The notes: generated from the sequence alone by a model not told the origin. Positions 3,810 to 15,682 are shown, numbered from the stretch's first letter. The stretch: 15,682 bases of DNA from a virus (IMGVR_UViG_2526164665_000024), one strand, 5' to 3'. Program-made: numbers and translations.

Positions 3810-4134
3810 TTGCTTTATCCTCCATACTGGAGAGAATCATATGTATTAATGTCGGGCGTGGAGATATACGCATTTCATTAAGCGTCTGAAGGGCAGCAAC
3901 AGCTGCCTGTTTATCGGTGCCTTTGGCAACTTCAGCAAGAGAATGCACAATCCATAACGGGCTTAACGCTACGGCTGAATGCAGAATCATGTCATCCATA
4001 ATAATTTCTGGCATATCCCGTTTGTCACATTCTTTATCCATAAAAGAAACAATTTTTTCTGCATCTTCCGGTTTCATGCCTCCGGCGATGAGAATTTTAC
4101 GATATTCATAAGACGATCTTAATTCAATACTCAT
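3802..4134 (-). CDS. hypothetical protein (AT-rich island)
   Basis: 110-aa ORF; likely starts at second ATG (4134-4132) given AGGTG position; no recognised motif. Confidence 0.45.
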   Translation of the reverse strand: MSIELRSSYEYRKILIAGGMKPEDAEKIVSFMDKECDKRDMPEIIMDDMILHSAVALSPLWIVHSLAEVAKGTDKQAAVAALQTLNEMRISPRPTLIHMILSSMEDKANE

Positions 4135-4149
4135 CATTCACCTGCCTGT

Positions 4150-4518
4150 TTAATCAGTTTCCAGTGCTTTGCTACGGGCAACAGCCTCACACTCAAAAAA
4201 TACCGACTCCGGCACACGCTCCTTTAATTCACGAACAAGAAAATCATTAACGAGTTCATGACGTCTTATATTTCTTTCCTTTTCCTCCTGGCGCAATACA
4301 GCAAGGCGGTATTCAACAGTCCGGCGTTGTTTCTGAAAGACAGCCAGTGCTTTTCTGGCAGAGTTACGCCATGTATCATCGCCACAGGGTTCGTATTCAA
4401 GCTGAAATTTAATCTCTTCAATGGTTTCTTTTATTTTTGCCAGCAAGCTAAGACAGTCGCTGATTGTCTTCAGTTTTTCATTATCAATATAACTTCTCAC
4501 GCATTCACCTCCCGTCAT
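4150..4518 (-). CDS. hypothetical charged/helical protein (AT-rich island)
   Basis: ATG 4518-4516 overlaps the corrected stop of the upstream gene (ATGA coupling); ORF-track GTG start at 4542 is an alternative; K/E/R-rich helical-looking C-terminal half. Confidence 0.45.
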   Translation of the reverse strand: MTGGECVRSYIDNEKLKTISDCLSLLAKIKETIEEIKFQLEYEPCGDDTWRNSARKALAVFQKQRRTVEYRLAVLRQEEKERNIRRHELVNDFLVRELKERVPESVFFECEAVARSKALETD

Positions 4519-4825: not shown

Positions 4826-5372
4826 GGCATTAATTCCCGTAATACAACATCTTCGGCAGTCCGACGACGGTGATAAATAAAACTCACCGTGCCCTCGGAT
4901 AATTCAAATTTCTCGCCGATTTCCCTAAAGGTAAGACGCCGTGGTGATTCAGCATCCCGTAATTCACGAATAAGACGAACATCATCGTCAGGTATGCGGG
5001 TGAAGGGCAGCAACTCTCCGTATTTTTCATGCTTACGCCAATATATCGCGCCCGATTGTGGACAGAATCCCGGTCTCGCCCCAGATATTCTCCTATTTGC
5101 TTACCGGTCATTGTTCTGGCATTTTTTCGGATAAATTTATCTTCATCAGGTTTAAATCTGAGGCGTTTGCATTTGAGCAACTCCGGGTAAGTACCGCGTA
5201 ATAAAACAATCCGGTTATGTACACCCCAGAAACTTCTTTTTATCCTGACAGCAATATCCTTAACCGGGGTGGATGGATAAAGCGCAATCAGCAGCGCATC
5301 TTCTTCAGGTGTCCATGCGCGAACATGAGCGGGTGCACGGCCTTTTCTCCCCATGGGTTGTAATATCATCAT
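4822..5372 (-). CDS. HTH DNA-binding protein with Mor/C-like C-terminal domain; frame broken at T-run 5023-5027 (plus strand)
   Basis: N-terminal part (ORF 4884..5372 frame) has two W/F-x-x-E/D-E-D repeats with HTH-like segments (WTPEEDALLIAL..., FKPDEDKFIRKNARTMTGKQIGEYLGRDRDSVHNRARYIGV); C-terminal part (ORF 4822..5013 frame) LIRELRDAESPRRLTFREIGEKFELSEGTVSFIYHRRR resembles Mor/C HTH. An A6 run would fuse them; otherwise two genes. Strong AGGGGGTGA RBS before ATG 5372. Confidence 0.45.
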
Positions 5373-5375
5373 GCA

Positions 5376-5891
5376 TCACCCCCTGACTCGCTTTTCAGCA
5401 GCATAAAACTCATCAGACAGAATTTCGGTCATTTTCTGTTTTGCGGGTTTTACGCCGCACTGAAGGTAAATCACATCGTCAACGCAGAACCACTCCACAG
5501 GGCCAAACAGGATTGCCGAGAAATCAATGCCCAGCCAGAACAACAGTGCATCGGTTCTGGCATACGTGACGGGCGAATATTCACGCCACAGACTGTTAAG
5601 TTCGTCAGAGGCAACGCGCAGGGCTTTGGGAATACGTGATGTGCGCGGTGTGCAGCTCCAGCCATTCGACGCAGTTGGTTTTCGCCATAAATCACGATGA
5701 AAAGGATATTTGTCCTCCGTAAAACGCAGTCCCTTAAAACAAAAACCACTGATACTGAATTCAAATACCGACCGGCACGCAACATTCAGCACGGCCTCAA
5801 GGCGTTTCGCCTCATCTTTTACCGTCTGGCAGTCCTGCTGGTATTTTTGCCACGCAGCCAGCGCGGAAGGGTTTGATGTTTTAAAGAACAT
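5376..5891 (-). CDS. hypothetical early-region protein (171 aa)
   Basis: ATG 5891 overlaps upstream stop (TAATG) with GGAGGTG RBS; no recognised motif. Confidence 0.5.
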   Translation of the reverse strand: MFFKTSNPSALAAWQKYQQDCQTVKDEAKRLEAVLNVACRSVFEFSISGFCFKGLRFTEDKYPFHRDLWRKPTASNGWSCTPRTSRIPKALRVASDELNSLWREYSPVTYARTDALLFWLGIDFSAILFGPVEWFCVDDVIYLQCGVKPAKQKMTEILSDEFYAAEKRVRG

Positions 5892-6424
5892 TACGCCACC
5901 TCCGCTGATATCCCGGCAGGCGCGGCCGTCCGGTCAACAATCAGGTAACGCAGAACGCGCGAGGTGATATTCCAGCCGCTTAAACCGCAGATAATGACGC
6001 CCAGGCGGATGTCGATATACGACATCACAAACTGGGGCACGCCTTCTTTCATGGCCTGCTCATCAACTTCAGCCACCACATAAACGGTTTCACAGGTCAG
6101 CACGCCCTGAGCAAATTCCCACGCCATCGACGGAATATCATGCCCTTCAATCCACGGCAGGGATTTTCTGAAGCTGCACCACTGAACATCATCAGCCGCA
6201 GACTCCTGGCTGCATTTGCGACGAACCGGCTGCACCGGGCGGGGACGCGGAATATCATAAAAACCGTTACATTCCGTCAGCACGCCTGCATCAACCGCAT
6301 CACGCAGAAAATAAACCATGGAGGATGGCGGCATATTCATTTTTTCAGCCAGAATACCGCAGGTCAGACGTCCGTAAATACGCAGCCAGTTTTTAACCCC
6401 TTCAAGCACTTTTGCATCAATCAT
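5891..6424 (-). CDS. hypothetical early-region protein (177 aa), possible N-terminal winged-helix
   Basis: ATG 6424 with GGAGGAA RBS; N-terminal segment GRLTCGILAEKMNMPPSSMVYFLRDAVDAGVLTE looks wHTH-like (weak inference). Confidence 0.5.
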   Translation of the reverse strand: MIDAKVLEGVKNWLRIYGRLTCGILAEKMNMPPSSMVYFLRDAVDAGVLTECNGFYDIPRPRPVQPVRRKCSQESAADDVQWCSFRKSLPWIEGHDIPSMAWEFAQGVLTCETVYVVAEVDEQAMKEGVPQFVMSYIDIRLGVIICGLSGWNITSRVLRYLIVDRTAAPAGISAEVA

Positions 6425-9954: not shown

Positions 9955-10082
9955 CAGGCCAGCGGGTCATTTTCTTTTAATTTCGCTTCCAGCAACTGCA
10001 ATCCCCGCTGGAAATTACGCTCGTATTCTTCATCAGGTTCATCGTCAGCGACCGGTTGCTGAACGGTCACCGTATTACCCAC
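9954..10082 (-). CDS. small ORF in the A-B spacer (42 codons from GTG), or out-of-frame C-terminal extension of transposase A
   Basis: Frame of ORF 9954..10160 gives a protein-like acidic tail NTVTVQQPVADDEPDEEYERNFQRGLQLLEAKLKENDPLA; its upstream part overlapping A looks like out-of-frame junk. Frame relation to A is not a single-base deletion. Confidence 0.25.
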   Translation of the reverse strand: MGNTVTVQQPVADDEPDEEYERNFQRGLQLLEAKLKENDPLA

Positions 10083-12045
10083 TAGGGCGGTATATGTTTT
10101 CCAGCCAGGGCTCCTGCGGCTTGTGCTCCAGCACGTTGACAACCTCATCCTCGGCATCACGGATTTTTTCCTCTGCGCGTTTACGCATGCCTTTAAGGCG
10201 TTGCTGCTGTTTGTAGTATTCCGCGCTAACCGGGAAGGCTTCGCGTTTATTACCGTCCCATACCGCCTCGCAAATCACGCTGCCATCCAGGCGACGTACG
10301 GTAATTCGTTCGGCATCATGAATGTCATAGCTGATAAGCACCTTACGGCCATGCTCGTCACGCAGCTCGGGCGCGTAGTAAATATTATTCAGCCAGCGTA
10401 TTTCACAGCGTCTTACAGGGCGTTCCACCATCGGCCGGAACATATCCCGCAGCTCAACATCGGACAGCCATTCAATTTCCGTGTCCTCTTCCGCCAGGCG
10501 TTTTTTTCTGAACTCCGCCGGGCTGTAATGCTTGCCGTTCGGCTTCACCGGTAATTCATCGTGCGGCCGGTTGTTGTACCACTCAACACCATCACGAATG
10601 GCATCAATCAGTTCAGCCCAGGACGGTAAATCACGCATCGCTGACTGTTGCCGGGCGTTCAGCCGTTTGCCCTGTTGCAGGGCGGTAAATGCCGAGCGTA
10701 AATCGCGGTTGGTTTTGCGTAACGTCTCGCGATCTGCACCTTTCCCGAAATAGGTGCGGTATTTACGGGCTATGCGCATCGGTAATGTGCGGTTAAGCCG
10801 TTCGATAATGCCCCGTCCCTGCGGGTTACCGGCAATCCCGGTCGGGTGATTAATCCCCAGTCGCGGCAGTATCCCCACAACCTCCTTATCCAGGATGTCG
10901 GCGGTTTCCCCGGAGCCGTTATCCGAGTAATACAGAAACGGTTTGCCGTGATGGCGAATGCCGTGCTGTATGGCACCGGCTACGGCGAAAACATTTTCAG
11001 CCAGGTCAAGGCTCCAGCCCACCACAAAGCGCGTGCCACCGTCGATAACAAAGGTCACTTCCGGTGCAAATGGCCGACCGTGAACCGGGTGTGCGCATTT
11101 CAGCTTCATGCCGTGACCGTCACCAATCCAGACATAATTCACCGGCATTTTTGACCAGTCGCGGCGCGTGAATCCCTCAAGCTGGCGGTATTCACTGCCG
11201 GTCACCCGGCCTTTTTGTTTCACCACTTCCGGCAGTTTCTTCATTGCGCGGCGAATGGTGTCATAAGACGGCATGATATCGAGCATATAAGGCTCATCAG
11301 CGTGCCGGTGCTGCCATTCAGCGACAAAATCCTCGTAAGCCTCGGTCATTGGTCGGCCGTTTGACTGGCGATACTGCGCCAGAAATTCGGGCAGCCAGTT
11401 AATATCTTCGGCTTTTATTTCCTGGCGCTTACCCGGTGCCAGTAAAAGCAGGCGTTCAGCGGCGTTCTGCGCCTTGTTAAAGGCCGCAATCCAGCGTTTC
11501 AGCGTGATTTCACTTAACGCGCGGCTGTTTCCCTTTTTGGCGTTCGCCGTCTCAACCATTGCCACAATGCGCTCGTCCAGCTGCGAACGTGCCAGGTTGT
11601 CAACGATAAACCGGATAGCCTTCGCACAGCTGAAACCAGGTTGTTGCGCGACTTTCAGAACTTCGCTGACGATCGCGATTCGTGCATCAGCCACCTGGCG
11701 CTGGTTTTCAGTCAGGGCATTAAGGCGTTCGACCATCAGTTGTGGTGATCCGCGATATGCCTCCACCGCATCAACCACGGCAGGCGAGCGTCTGGCCTTT
11801 GTCACCACCGGAGCCGGTGATTCATCGACTTTTTGCGTCATCAGTTGCAGGGCGTAGCGTTCACGTAATGCCTGCTGCGTCACTTCAGGTAAACAGTCGA
11901 TGCTGTATTCAGTTGCTTTAGAGCCTGAGCGACGACGGGAACAACAGCTTTTCCCTTGTACGTAACGTTGTAATGCCTGGCGAATACCTTTTGTTGTAGC
12001 AGGCATTCCGGGCGCGCCAATCAGTTCTTTTGCAATGACATACAT
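10075..12045 (-). CDS. A: MuA-like DDE transposase
   Basis: 656 aa (Mu A is 663); N-terminal enhancer/end-binding domain resembling Mu A (GSKATEYSIDCLPE vs Mu GGKAIEYN..SLP); DDE-region motifs WIGDGHGM and YYSDNGSGE; gene order ner-A-B. Confidence 0.92.
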   Translation of the reverse strand: MYVIAKELIGAPGMPATTKGIRQALQRYVQGKSCCSRRRSGSKATEYSIDCLPEVTQQALRERYALQLMTQKVDESPAPVVTKARRSPAVVDAVEAYRGSPQLMVERLNALTENQRQVADARIAIVSEVLKVAQQPGFSCAKAIRFIVDNLARSQLDERIVAMVETANAKKGNSRALSEITLKRWIAAFNKAQNAAERLLLLAPGKRQEIKAEDINWLPEFLAQYRQSNGRPMTEAYEDFVAEWQHRHADEPYMLDIMPSYDTIRRAMKKLPEVVKQKGRVTGSEYRQLEGFTRRDWSKMPVNYVWIGDGHGMKLKCAHPVHGRPFAPEVTFVIDGGTRFVVGWSLDLAENVFAVAGAIQHGIRHHGKPFLYYSDNGSGETADILDKEVVGILPRLGINHPTGIAGNPQGRGIIERLNRTLPMRIARKYRTYFGKGADRETLRKTNRDLRSAFTALQQGKRLNARQQSAMRDLPSWAELIDAIRDGVEWYNNRPHDELPVKPNGKHYSPAEFRKKRLAEEDTEIEWLSDVELRDMFRPMVERPVRRCEIRWLNNIYYAPELRDEHGRKVLISYDIHDAERITVRRLDGSVICEAVWDGNKREAFPVSAEYYKQQQRLKGMRKRAEEKIRDAEDEVVNVLEHKPQEPWLENIYRPSG

Positions 12046-12046
12046 A

Positions 12047-12295
12047 TCATGACGCCTTTCTCATATAGCTCTTAACCTGGTATCGACTGGGCCAGATTTC
12101 TTCAGGCGATACCCCAAGAGCATCAGCAATTATTTGCTGATACGGTCGGCAAGGAGTACGTAATACGCTTTTCAGCGAATCCCTGCTGTAACCAGCCTTT
12201 AAAGATAAAGAGCGCAGTGATAAGCCAGCCATGTGTAAGCGCGCCTTGATGATTTCAGGCGGCCAATCGTGATCTGAAACTTCTCTTCTACTCAT
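12047..12295 (-). CDS. ner: Ner-like DNA-binding early regulator
   Basis: 82 aa; DWPPEIIKARLHMAGLSLRSLSLKAGY...QQIIADALGVSPEEIWPSRYQ aligns closely with Mu Ner as recalled (DWHRADVIAGLKKRKLSLSALSRQFGY...EQIIANALETKPEVIWPSRYQ); GAGGAAG RBS; directly upstream of A. Confidence 0.85.
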   Translation of the reverse strand: MSRREVSDHDWPPEIIKARLHMAGLSLRSLSLKAGYSRDSLKSVLRTPCRPYQQIIADALGVSPEEIWPSRYQVKSYMRKAS

Positions 12296-12485
12296 ACTTC
12301 CTCTATTCTAAAAAGTTACCCGCGCGGATATTCGTGCGGATATCTGCACGGGTAAATAATGCATCACTAAAAATACCAAATCAAGGTATTTTTGGTATTT
12401 TGGCTAATTTTTGCTTTTGTCCTTATTTTTCAATTGGATAAATAGAAAGAAACCTTTCCTTAGAAAAGCACCAAGAGGTATCTTT
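12296..12485. promoter_or_regulatory. divergent promoter/operator region between ner and the repressor gene
   Basis: 190-bp AT-rich intergenic region between divergent genes; 7-bp inverted repeat TTACCCG/CGGGTAA (12316-12322, 12349-12355) enclosing direct repeats GCGGATAT (12324-12331, 12336-12343); 11-bp perfect palindrome arms AAAATACCAAA/TTTGGTATTTT (12370-12380, 12391-12401) with tandem GGTATTTT repeats; AAGAGG RBS at 12472-12477. Confidence 0.55.
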
Positions 12486-13016
12486 ATGTCGCAGGGAAAA
12501 GAACCTGTTATTGAACGTATTGGAATGCTTACAAAGCGCTACCCTTCAAGAAGTGCAGCTGCCAGAGCGTGGGGAATCAATATCAACACATTAAACAGCT
12601 ATTTCAAGGGAGGACAAACACAACCAGCCCCCAGAGAAAGTATCCTTATACGAATTTCTGAAAGTGAAGGAGTTAGTCTTGAGTGGCTTAAAGAGGGCAA
12701 GGGTGAATCACCAAACGATGTTGGTATTTGTGGTAATTTTGGTTGTTCTGGTGATAAGGGAGATCAACTTACACAGATGCTTTCATTCCTTACGAAAGAC
12801 GAACGAGAACAGTTAACCAATCTCCTTGCTCGCAAAGGTGTAGAGACGGTTCTGACACTGCTGGATAAAGAAAACCAGGATTTATTACAACTAGAAGGCA
12901 GGAAGCGCCTGGCTGCGTTGATGATTGTAGATATGCCAGACGATTGCGTCAGAGAGATTTTGGAAAAAACCGAGACAAGTAGGCAATCAAATCCGGTAGA
13001 ATCTAAAGCGGGTTAG
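12486..13016 (+). CDS. prophage repressor, HTH DNA-binding (Mu c-like by position)
   Basis: ATG 12486 with AAGAGG RBS (the ORF-track start at 12411 has none); HTH-like SRSAAARAWGININTLNSYFKG; transcribed divergently from ner-A-B, the position of Mu c. Confidence 0.65.
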   Translation: MSQGKEPVIERIGMLTKRYPSRSAAARAWGININTLNSYFKGGQTQPAPRESILIRISESEGVSLEWLKEGKGESPNDVGICGNFGCSGDKGDQLTQMLSFLTKDEREQLTNLLARKGVETVLTLLDKENQDLLQLEGRKRLAALMIVDMPDDCVREILEKTETSRQSNPVESKAG

Positions 13017-13178
13017 TTTGGCGAGGCTGGCCCGTATGTTAGTTGCCATATAGATTTAATGAAGTTTTAAACGCTTTAAAAAGTTGAGATCGCAGTATCA
13101 AAAGTTTTGCCGATTTTAGAATAAACGATTAATTATTGCACAATCGGTATCAAATAGACTTTAAGCGCTCATCCAGAC

Positions 13179-13260
13179 ATCACCTGTTTTATTTCAGTAT
13201 CTTACAGGTGATTTCACCTCCTTTCACTAAAACCCTCGTTGGTATCAAATGATTCACCTG
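13179..13260. repeat. cluster of TCACCTG / CAGGTGA motif copies incl. two palindromic arrangements; candidate protein-binding sites (possible transposase end-binding sites)
   Basis: ATCACCTG 13179-13186 and its inverse CAGGTGAT 13205-13212; AGGTGA-tt-TCACCT 13206-13219; GATTCACCTG 13251-13260; direct copies ~34-40 bp apart, 165-245 bp beyond the repressor stop. Confidence 0.4.
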
Positions 13261-14446
13261 GTTACATACTGCCGGAACAACCAGCAAACGGGCATTGTGT
13301 TCTGAAATCCAGGCTATTGATTCAACGTCAGCGACAGATCTGCGCTGTAAAAGAACTTGTAAAACAACGTAATAGAATTATCCGGAATGGTGGCGACTAT
13401 GCACTAGAACACCACAATTTCGCTCTCTCGGTAAGGCACTGTCACAGCATTCAACAGAATGTGACTTGCCAGATTTATTAGCGCCACCAGATGTTTAACC
13501 GGGTAACCACGACCCAGTCGGGGATATATTCCATCTTCTCGCTGACATCATCAAGAATAAAAAGGTTTATCACACTCAGAGCAACGTTCTTCAGCAGGCG
13601 GGATAATTCTTCAACATTTAGAAGATGTGTTATTAAAGGCATACAAACTGGACGTATTGTATTTTCTTTTGGTGGTTGACCTAAGGTAGCAGTTTATCCT
13701 GATGCGCTGAGATTTCTGTAATATCTACGTCAACATTCTCCTCGAATAGAAAATGCAGCCCCGGCAAGTGATTCACATTTTTTAACAAAACGTTGTTAGC
13801 GTGCCATTTTCAGAAGCTCTCCAAGAAAGCGAATTCTTTTCTCAAATTCTGCATTCTCAGACACAGCTTTCTACTCCATGGTAATGGCCCAAATACGAAG
13901 TTGCTCAGGATCATTAGTGGTGCTGAGAAGTTAAATAACCATGCGGAGTACCACTCGTCATCACGTATTTATATATCATGAAGCTATTGTTGTGTTTTGT
14001 ACATCAGTAGATATATTCTGATATACTCCTTTTGCTAGACATAACCTTTCACCTGCTTGCAAAGCTTCTGTGTTCTGACATTGCCAAATTGTTGCAATTC
14101 TGTATCCAGCCTTCTTTCAGTCATAGCTTCGGGCCGCGATAAGACTCACTGATCTGACCCTGATTCCTCTTGCAGACTTTATAGACCAATTAAAATGCAG
14201 TTTCTGCAGGTCAACGTCTGACCATCATTGTCATCACTCTGGCCATTAGAGTAACCTTCTGCATTCATCCTTTTGTAAAAAGTTTATGTCAGTATCAGCA
14301 ATTAACCGGACCTGATACTGATATGAGTCTTACCGCATATACGGTCAATTTCAGCAATTAATTACATTATCCACGCCAAAGTGTTTGTCATCGCAATGAT
14401 GGTACCTTCTTTCAGACACCATTTTTTCAACTCCGTTTTCCACGGA

Positions 14447-14471
14447 CCGCACTCTTATGTCAAGAGTGCGG
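14447..14471. repeat. perfect 10-bp-stem hairpin (CCGCACTCTT-atgtc-AAGAGTGCGG) directly abutting the IS3 terminus
   Basis: Read directly; last base of the stem is 14471 and the IS3 terminal TGATCC starts at 14472. No adjacent T/U tract on either strand. Confidence 0.6.
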
Positions 14472-14501
14472 TGATCCTACCCACGTAATATGGACACAGG
14501 C

Positions 14502-15324
14502 CTAAGCGAGGTTCTGGTTTTCAAATTGTTCCGGACTGAGGCCGCCACACCAACTGTGCCGCCGCCACCGATTGTAATCACATTCGATATAATTAAACAC
14601 CGTTGCCCGCATTATTTCCCGGCTGATAAAGTGTTCTCCATGGATACATTCCACTTTCAGCGAATGAAAGAAGCTTTCCACGCAGATTATGCCGCTTCAG
14701 TTGCGCCTGATAATCTGCTGAACAGTACTGGCCTCCACGGTCCGTGTGAACGATAACGTTCCGGGGCCTCTTACGCCGCCATAGCGCCATCTGCAGGGCA
14801 TCGCAGGCCAGTTGCGCCGTCATGCGTGGCGACATTGACCAGCCAATAACGGCACGTGACTACAGGTCAATGACCACTGCCAGATACAGCCAGCCTTCAT
14901 CTGTACGTAAGTACGTGATGTCTCCTGCCCACTTCTGGTTCGGGCCACTGGCGTAAAAATCCTGCTCCAACAGATTTTCTGACACAGGCAGGCCGTGTGC
15001 GCGGTAGCTGACCGGGCTGAACTTCCGGGAGGCCTTTGCCCTCAGTCCCTGACGGCGCAGGCTTGCCGCCACGGTTTTTACGTTAAAGGGGTAACCCTGA
15101 GCACGCAGTTCATCCGTCAGGCGTGGGGCACCGTAACGCTGTTTTGACCGGGTAAAAGCCGCGAGGACAACGCTGTCGCAGTGTTGGCGGAACTGCTGAC
15201 GCGTGCTTATCCTTGTCCGCCGCTGACACCACGTATACCAGCCGCTGCGGGCCACCCGGAGCACGCGGCACATTGCTTTGATGCTGAACTCAGCCTGATG
15301 TTTTTCAATAAAGACATACTTCAT
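14502..15324 (-). pseudogene. insF: IS3 orfB transposase (DDE), inactivated by an in-frame TAG and a 44-bp deletion
   Basis: Matches IS3 Orf[22 protein letters not shown]... up to ...LAVVIDL, then TAG (14860-14862) where I recall Trp (TGG); later ...KRHNLRG runs directly into [16 protein letters not shown]... in another frame, i.e. ~15 codons (SMSAKGCCYDNAC) missing between two CTGCGTGG repeats (junction ~14678-14685). Confidence 0.85.
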
Positions 15325-15619
15325 TTCAGGCGCTTCGCGAAGTATGTCGCGGCCTTTTGGAGGATAGCCAGCTCTTCATCCCGTTCTGCCAGCTGGCGTT
15401 TGAGACGTGCAATCTCGGTAGACATCTCCAGTTCACGTTCAGAAGACGTCTGCTGATTTTGCTGTTTACTGCGCCAGTTGTAGAGCTGTGATTCATACAG
15501 GCTGAGTTCACGGGCTGCGGCAGTAACACCGATGCGTTCAGCAAGCTTCAGGGCTTCACTGCGAAATTCAGGCGAATGCTGTTTACGGGGTTTTTACTGG
15601 TTGATACTGTTTTTGTCAT
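15321..15619 (-). pseudogene. insE: IS3 orfA (HTH transposase subunit), frameshifted by 1-nt deletion in homopolymer at 15591-15595
   Basis: Translation MTKTVSTSK then shift; canonical IS3 OrfA as recalled is MTKTVSTSKKPRKQHSPEFRSEALKLAERIGV...; window has AAAAACCCC where A6 is expected; downstream frame gives ...[37 protein letters not shown] with TGA overlapping orfB ATG. Confidence 0.85.
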
Positions 15620-15682
15620 GTGAGTCACCTCTGACTGAGAGTTTACTCACTTAGCCGCGTGTCCACTATTGCTGGGTAAGAT

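Follow-up and report, generated by a model that had tools for sequence, protein, structure and literature searches.

The window analyzed here is a 15,682-nucleotide stretch of DNA from a virus (IMGVR_UViG_2526164665_000024), in which a segment of 1.45 kb (13017-14471) separates the repressor gene of a Mu-like prophage from a copy of the insertion sequence IS3. This segment almost certainly consists of two non-coding stretches joined to each other, namely the end of the phage (13017-13266) and a piece of decayed Escherichia coli chromosome (13267-14471). Its parts are all of known kinds, the phage end being the same sequence that is annotated in the genome of E. coli O157:H7 Sakai, and the finding is an ordinary one. 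It defines the prophage boundary at single-base resolution (13266) and allows the missing right-junction sequence to be predicted, which matters little beyond annotation.

Phage-host junction

The prophage terminates at base 13266 because 16 other copies of the phage share the sequence ...CACCTGGTTACA (...GGTTACA) that ends there and then run into unrelated DNA from the next base on. These copies (L002, L007 and L009-L022) comprise ten loci with an identical repressor, obtained from public assemblies, and six annotated records. They are found in different contexts, including sorM, xylE/psiE, garP/garL, a type VI secretion system gene and other prophages. Over the last 260 bp, 13 of the 16 are identical to the window, while two show one base change and one shows a 1-bp indel. 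The defining feature of a left attachment site (attL), i.e., one terminal sequence with unrelated host flanks across the independent copies, is present. The terminal CA of the prophage occupies 13265-13266 on the plus strand, and the junction lies between 13266 and 13267.

When 12300-15682 was searched against complete E. coli genomes, the 100% matches all started at 13267 and none covered the whole query. In the search of phage records, the 99.8% matches all ended at 13266; these are records of Shiga toxin (Stx) phages (LC727881, LC727895), in which the matched stretch is annotated as 'region of the inserted Bacteriophage Mu-like phage'. With a query spanning the left end, 231 out of the 5426 complete E. 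coli genomes are seen to carry the phage, and their alignments end at 13266 plus a few chance bases. The insertion sites among these 231 genomes cover many genes (e.g., puuB, ypdA, hyaE, mhpD, bcsA, dcuC, sorM and garP) as well as other prophages.

The sequence-only reading had expected, by analogy with Mu, that the left end would lie a few hundred bp past the repressor stop codon, yet it could not place the terminus. Alignment to an uninfected relative of the host, E. coli O26:H11 11368, now places the junction at 13266/13267. The empty site of this strain reads ...AATTAATGC followed directly by TACTGCCGG; it has a C where the window has an A at 13266, and the two sequences are identical from 13267 onwards. 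The expectation was sound, as the end is located 250 bp past the stop codon, compared to 338 bp in Mu. Three things are observed directly, namely the junction, what each of the two parts is, and how the repeats of the phage end described below are arranged.

Composition and coding content

The borders of the segment are exact: the repressor stop codon finishes at 13016, and the IS3 end begins with its base 1 at 14472. The labels 'repressor' and 'IS3' that had been given to the two neighbors are right, based on a match to PHROG 3037 for the former and an alignment to the K-12 copy IS3B for the latter. The segment had further been described as an AT-rich spacer that is essentially free of open reading frames (ORFs), with which the GC figures, the ORF listing and a shuffle test all agree. 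The GC content over 13017-14471 is 40.6%, with 36.4% in the phage part (13017-13266) and 41.5% in the host part (13267-14471), versus 51.3% for the prophage coding part and 53.8% for IS3.

On the minus strand, the longest ORF comprises 54 amino acids (13478-13642) and none reaches 60 amino acids. The plus strand holds exactly three ORFs, located at 13239-13481 (80 amino acids, with a TTG start), 13491-13679 (62 amino acids) and 13793-13981 (62 amino acids). The largest of these is not an evolved gene because it spans the phage-host junction at 13266/13267. Over the six frames, the longest stop-free stretch is 89 codons, where shuffled sequences give a mean of 88.8 codons (standard deviation 19.3; n = 500); in prophage windows of the same 1455 bp it is always at least 108 codons and mostly 180-480. 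The ORF content of the segment is no more than that of shuffled sequence.

Target-site duplication and terminal dinucleotides

Transposable phages duplicate a few bases of their target upon insertion. The expected duplication in the window is TACT, because Sp18-type phages, the family to which the prophage is assigned below, make 4-bp duplications. The copy adjoining the left end is located at 13267-13270 (plus strand), and the empty site in O26 reads ...AATGC TACT GCCGG. In Sakai, the phage is flanked by ...GTTCTTTA on one side and TTTAATACC... on the other, with TTTA as the duplication. As a check on the empty site, a composite with a single TTTA restores an intact sorM, to which many O157 genomes are 100% identical along 124 nt. 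Four more prophages that were fetched whole have the duplications AGTA, CGTA, ATCA and ATAA, and the depositors of LC727881 annotated GATG. The duplications of the Sp18 family are thus 4 bp long in all five cases checked, in addition to the depositor-annotated one. A 5-bp duplication obtained by shifting one or the other terminus by one base was considered and rejected: the flanks then mismatch in three out of four loci and disagree with the flanks in Sakai.

The left end has the terminal TG/CA, while the right end reads TATAGCG inward, i.e., it finishes in TA (six copies). The Mu-type arrangement of TG...CA at both ends is therefore found at the left end only, from which the right end departs. 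Compared to Mu, Sp18-type phages differ both in the duplication (4 bp versus 5 bp) and in the ends (TG...TA versus TG...CA). In a review of transposable phages, the duplications listed are those of Mu (5 bp) and B3 (6 bp) only (PMC8705779). The 4-bp stagger and the TA right end of Sp18-type phages constitute a small novelty, which is better supported than a functional role for the non-coding DNA at 13515-14471 that is weighed below. Based on the above, the right junction is predicted to read ...GAATTAATGCTACT followed across the junction by TATAGCGCGGCG... or, at greater length, ...GAATTAATGCTACT followed by TATAGCGCGG...; the missing right flank can likewise be predicted as ...GATAATGAATTAATGCTACT and then TATAGCGCGGCGATTTTTTTGATACC, expected some 38-39 kb upstream of 13266 and hence outside the window. 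The 4-bp duplications, together with the set of proposed end sites described in the next section, may be of use to the study of transposable phages or to the typing of Shiga toxin-producing E. coli (STEC).

Anatomy of the phage end

The non-coding left end of the Sp18-type Mu-like prophage (13017-13266, minus strand) begins with TGTAACCAGGTG when read inward from the tip, or TGTAACCAGGTGAATCATTTGATACC... over a longer stretch. It comprises three octamers TTTGATAC of the same orientation that start 18, 113 and 165 nt from the tip, and the TTGATAC heptamers that they contain begin one nt later. We propose these as the transposase-binding cores L1 (13242-13249; heptamer at nt 19-25 from the terminus), L2 (13147-13154; heptamer at nt 114-120, with the octamer followed by CGAT) and L3 (13095-13102; heptamer at nt 166-172), all on the minus strand. 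In the 15.7-kb window, TTTGATAC occurs four times where 0.47 occurrences are expected, and three of the four lie within 155 bp at the end on the minus strand. The right end of the Sp18-type phage, as present in LC727881, Sakai and four other genomes, reads TATAGCGCGGCGATTTTTTTGATACC... and carries TTGATAC at nt 19, 41 and 76. Both phage ends have three copies of the heptamer, and the outermost copies are in register with each other, each beginning at nt 19 counted from its tip.

By analogy with Mu, the TTTGATAC cores are most likely transposase-binding sites and the counterparts of L1, L2 and L3 in Mu. The CGAAA cores L1, L2 and L3 of Mu attL are found at nt 22, 127 and 167, compared to 19, 114 and 166 in the window, so that both ends have a site beside the tip, a gap of about 100 bp and then two sites. 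Further likenesses are that the repressor gene reads towards the end (from 250 bp away in the window and, for the c gene, from 338 bp in Mu), that the left tip reads TG inward, and that the transposase and the B protein have Mu-family domains. On the contrary, the core itself differs (TTTGATAC in the window versus ...CGAAA in Mu), the repressor is only marginally similar to Mu c, and no DNA similarity to Mu was detected in the search of phage records.

Drawing on the established knowledge of Mu transposition, the transposase (gene at 10075-12045) would bind the left cores and the three sites at the right end and thereby pair the two ends. The transposase on the paired ends would then introduce nicks directly behind the terminal base and link the ends to a target that is cut 4 bp apart.

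Several (A)GGTGA/TCACCT copies are a feature of the left end (13176-13221 and 13253-13261) and not of the right end. Among them is a 12-nt inverted repeat (13176-13187/13204-13215) located in the spacer between the proposed L1 and L2. In Mu, HU bends the DNA in the L1-L2 spacer. At the inner border of the phage end, a hairpin with a 12-pair stem overlaps the repressor stop codon (13008-13035, plus strand). This terminator-like match is a weak candidate terminator that may end the repressor transcript; the fold of 13000-13090 has an energy of -21.7 kcal/mol and a z of -1.4, which is not distinctive.

The host stretch and its origin

The host stretch (13267-14471) matches O26:H11 11368 without a single difference (100% identity), while there are four substitutions relative to K-12, all of which are in 13404-14471. 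It is present beside cobU in 4036 of the 5426 complete E. coli genomes (around three quarters), at an identity of at least 99% in nearly all of them. The sequence-only reading had suggested that what remains of the segment beyond the phage end may be degraded host or island DNA, and indeed common pseudogene sequence of the E. coli chromosome can be aligned to these 1205 bp over their full length.

Immediately next to the junction, 13267-13308 (minus strand) represents the inner end (42 bp) of what is left of a cobalamin-biosynthesis gene, a 144-bp remnant located upstream of cobU and split by the prophage. In O26, this remnant is annotated by the Prokaryotic Genome Annotation Pipeline (PGAP) as the pseudogene 'cobalamin biosynthesis protein, missing N-terminus' (L001 5899-6042), and the insertion falls at 6000/6001. 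The insertion point is 253 bp upstream of the cobU start, and the reported cobUST promoter, located between cobU and this point, stays with cobU. Since the interrupted sequence was no longer a working gene and cobU keeps the cobUST promoter, no loss of host function is expected.

The remnant is followed by an internal fragment of an IS4-family transposase with a stop codon (13317-13505, minus strand), which PGAP annotates in O26, SMS-3-5 and T16R. It matches the NCBIfam model transpos_IS4_1 over 13329-13514 (E 2e-4), and its approximately 63 codons are about 72% identical to residues ~166-228 of a 428-amino-acid IS4 transposase (P0010). Given that an intact ORF with Nterm_IS4 and DDE domains is lacking, it is a fragment and not a gene. 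The prophage thus transposed into the 144-bp remnant, with the rest of the remnant, the IS4 fragment and about 1 kb of orphan DNA rich in stop codons lying downstream of the junction.

In K-12, the colinear sequence between cobU and yoeA harbors the pseudogenes yeeH, yoeG and yoeH. Mapped from NC_000913.3, their equivalents in the window are, all on the minus strand, 13317-13403 for yeeH (within the IS4 fragment), 13410-13942 for yoeG (its start overlapping the IS4 fragment) and, by coordinates, 14311-14469 for yoeH. K-12 differs from the window by an IS5H element, whose site CTAG (13404-13407, plus strand) is empty in the window. The two alignment blocks overlap by these 4 bp, as window 13267-13407 corresponds to 4019-4159 and 13404-14472 to 5355-6423 of the K-12 locus (L004). 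A second difference is that the K-12 sequence leads into yoeA. Its place is taken in the window, as in O26, by a deleted IS3 that begins at 14472 and by other DNA after it.

Searches of the host stretch for further content were largely negative. A six-frame Pfam search of 13267-14471 gave no match and NCBIfam gave the IS4 fragment only. Beyond this fragment, the protein-database search returned only spurious or chimeric ORFs internal to E. coli. No match was found with the Rfam 15 covariance models in 12000-14700 on both strands at E up to 1, and the ARAGORN scan found no tRNA or tmRNA. The tandem and dispersed repeats in the stretch are limited to short, chance-level matches, and the counts of promoter-like and terminator-like sites equal the shuffle expectation.

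Some points weigh against the reading of the segment as a phage end joined to host remnants, or against parts of it. This insertion is absent from the 5426 complete E. coli genomes and from three other collections: a 28-mer across the left junction was not found in the GTDB species representatives, the JGI metagenome contigs or IMG/VR, and the right-junction pattern (with 0-2 extra bases allowed) was not found in the GTDB representatives. The right end lies beyond the window, so that the second copy of TACT is a presumed one and the prophage as a whole may or may not be intact. Transposase binding at the TTTGATAC cores is deduced from their pattern and the analogy with Mu, and the available left ends are nearly identical, so that their conservation gives no independent support for the sites. 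Lastly, about 1 kb of the host stretch (13515-14471) has no recognizable ancestor, and its description as decayed gene follows from its stop-codon density and the K-12 annotation.

The origin of the host stretch can be viewed in another way. Rather than an IS4 remnant and orphan DNA at the scar of the lost cbi genes, it may represent a left arm of the cryptic prophage CP4-44 that has decayed, which we consider a plausible but rather unlikely origin. The K-12 record NC_000913.3 indeed starts 'cryptic prophage CP4-44' at 2066020, corresponding to 13269 in the window, and takes in yeeH, yoeG and yoeH. Nothing phage-like was detected in the stretch, however, for which the IS4-type transposase fragment is the sole match. 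Moreover, O26-type genomes keep the stretch, but what lies beyond it is IS3 followed by a phosphotriesterase-like and a gamma-glutamyltransferase pseudogene, and in SMS-3-5 it is a TonB-dependent receptor pseudogene. The left border of CP4-44 in the K-12 record is only 2-3 bp off the insertion point of the Mu-like phage, which is probably a coincidence.

Whichever its ancestry, the host stretch could still encode functional small RNAs or a small protein (the yoeH RNA pair, or the 54-amino-acid ORF at 13478-13642), although the chance of this appears slim. For K-12, promoters have been mapped in vitro upstream of yoeG and yoeH (PMC3946193). The motif of the former (TGTACA-17-CATGAT) was found in both K-12 and the window, where it is kept at 13975-14003 (minus strand) as a promoter of predicted function. 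The yoeH remnant is transcribed in K-12, with a sense transcript and an antisense RNA of approximately 150-200 nt; Rho terminates the latter at an aptamer that binds RNA polymerase, and RNase III degrades it (PMC6847712). In addition, the stretch is kept at an identity of at least 99% in most E. coli genomes, and the 54-amino-acid ORF is sometimes called a hypothetical protein by PGAP. Yet, such an identity is ordinary for E. coli chromosomal DNA, and the counterparts of this ORF are only chimeric or internal to E. coli. The yoeH promoter of K-12 maps to K-12 sequence past the point at which IS3 begins in the window, where the promoter was not detected, and the authors of the transcript study treat the yoeH RNAs as pervasive antisense transcription (PMC6847712). 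The null result with Rfam and the chance-level number of promoter- and terminator-like sites point the same way. It is accordingly improbable that the ORF-less part (13515-14471) is a functional non-coding locus, e.g., a yoeH sense/antisense pair with its aptamer. The earlier suggestion that the spacer may encode small RNAs or peptides thus found no support in the Rfam and protein searches, even though yoeH transcripts are reported for K-12.

Finally, the reading in which all 1.45 kb is phage DNA, with the true left end at or past IS3 and IS3 truncating the prophage or lying within it, has the uniform AT-richness of the segment as its sole support and is refuted by the genome searches (13267-14471 occurs beside cobU in thousands of genomes, of which only 231 match the phage left end), by the empty site in O26 and by the 16 copies that end at the equivalent of 13266 with unrelated DNA after it, which leaves it virtually no probability.

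Two minor observations concern the decayed chromosome around the IS4 fragment. The 2504-bp record MG065683.1 ('Campylobacter phage B14') matches 13404-13687 at 100%, starting from exactly the IS5H site of K-12, which suggests that E. coli K-12 DNA is present within that record. In some assemblies, a 141-amino-acid protein (P0002) is composed of the 54-amino-acid ORF at 13478-13642 fused to an N-terminal piece that by eye is tyrosine-recombinase-like. This hints at another rearrangement of the remnant region in other strains.

Identity of the phage and its neighboring genes

Judged by its sequence, the prophage is a member of the Sp18 family, the Mu-like transposable phages known from O157:H7 Sakai. 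The same sequence is annotated there as 'prophage Sp18, Mu-like phage' and sits in sorM. The identity to Sp18 amounts to 98.9% over 10200-13267, with the last 260 bp identical, and both share the terminal sequence and the order of end, repressor, Ner-like gene, transposase and MuB-like ATPase. The copy in the window differs from the family in two respects. Its site in the cobalamin-gene remnant, 253 bp upstream of cobU, is not seen in the 5426 complete E. coli genomes or the three other collections, and its transposase gene carries an extra base near 10083 that reduces the protein from 696 to 656 amino acids.

The same Mu-like phage occurs at variable sites in O157, O26, O103, O145 and O165 STEC and inside Stx phages (LC727881, LC727895). 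Mu is not known to take a circular form. Likewise, Sp18 has been described as an intact and efficiently packaged prophage for which a circular form was not detected (PMC2669165), and close relatives have been reported at variable sites in the O157 and O165 lineages, in STEC and inside Stx phages (PMC7430833; PMC10132054).

The repressor gene (12486-13016, plus strand) is the counterpart of Mu c, reads towards the phage end and encodes 176 amino acids. It matches PHROG 3037 ('transcriptional repressor') with an E of 1e-62 and is annotated as 'regulatory protein' ECs_4943 in Sakai Sp18. Its similarity to the C-terminal part of Mu c is weak (29% over 80 amino acids; E 0.035), and the identical protein is present in thousands of assemblies. 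The adjacent genes follow the order of the Mu type, i.e., the repressor, a Ner-like HTH_35 protein, the transposase and a MuB-like ATPase, and a match to PHROG 769 is also found among them. The transposase comprises the domains Mu-transpos_C and HTH_Tnp_Mu_1, and the ATPase comprises Phage-MuB_C and AAA_22.

The transposase gene (10075-12045, minus strand) is identical to the reference copy of 696 amino acids (L009), except for one inserted A near 10083 (CCCTAGTGGG compared to CCCTGTGGG in the reference) that is located outside any homopolymer run. The resulting frameshift yields the 656-amino-acid protein, which lacks the last ~42 residues. Because the corresponding tail of MuA contacts MuB and ClpX, this copy of the prophage may have lost the ability to transpose, unless the additional A stems from an error in sequencing. 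A frameshifted transposase in a copy that is possibly no longer mobile may be a second useful side point for those working on STEC or transposable phages.

The repressor and the Ner-like gene diverge from a control region (12296-12485) that contains repeated GGTATTTT/AAAATACC elements (AAAATACCAAATCAAGGTATTTTTGGTATTTTGG, which also came up as a terminator-like match). The repeated elements probably serve as operators, and they are similar to one half of the end-site core GGTATCAAA. The operator region of Mu is at the same time its transposition enhancer.

The IS3 border

The IS3 copy (14472-15682, minus strand) starts at 14472 with the end sequence TGATCCTACCC, as aligned to IS3B of K-12, and the window ends 2 bp before its other end. 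It includes the terminal inverted repeat, carries an internal deletion of approximately 34 bp and a frameshift, and is 99.5-99.6% identical to positions 1-214 and 249-1256 of IS3B. Directly adjacent to it, the last bases of the host stretch (14440-14471) belong to a palindrome (CCACGGACCGCACTCTT-ATGTC-AAGAGTGCGG) that forms a perfect 17-bp stem in K-12 (L004 6388-6430); in the window, 10 bp of its 3' arm are left before IS3 begins. Where IS3 starts, the homologous sequence of K-12 and SMS-3-5 carries on into yoeA, a pseudogene of a TonB-dependent receptor. The flanks of IS3 in O26 (L001 8417-8430) are CGG and CCT, i.e., no 3-bp duplication is present, and a 5'-truncated phosphotriesterase-like pseudogene follows. 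Because of this missing duplication and the truncated pseudogene beyond, the sequence points to IS3 as the border of an old deletion or rearrangement rather than as a simple insertion. Compared to O26 11368, the window is one T short in the T-run at 15591.

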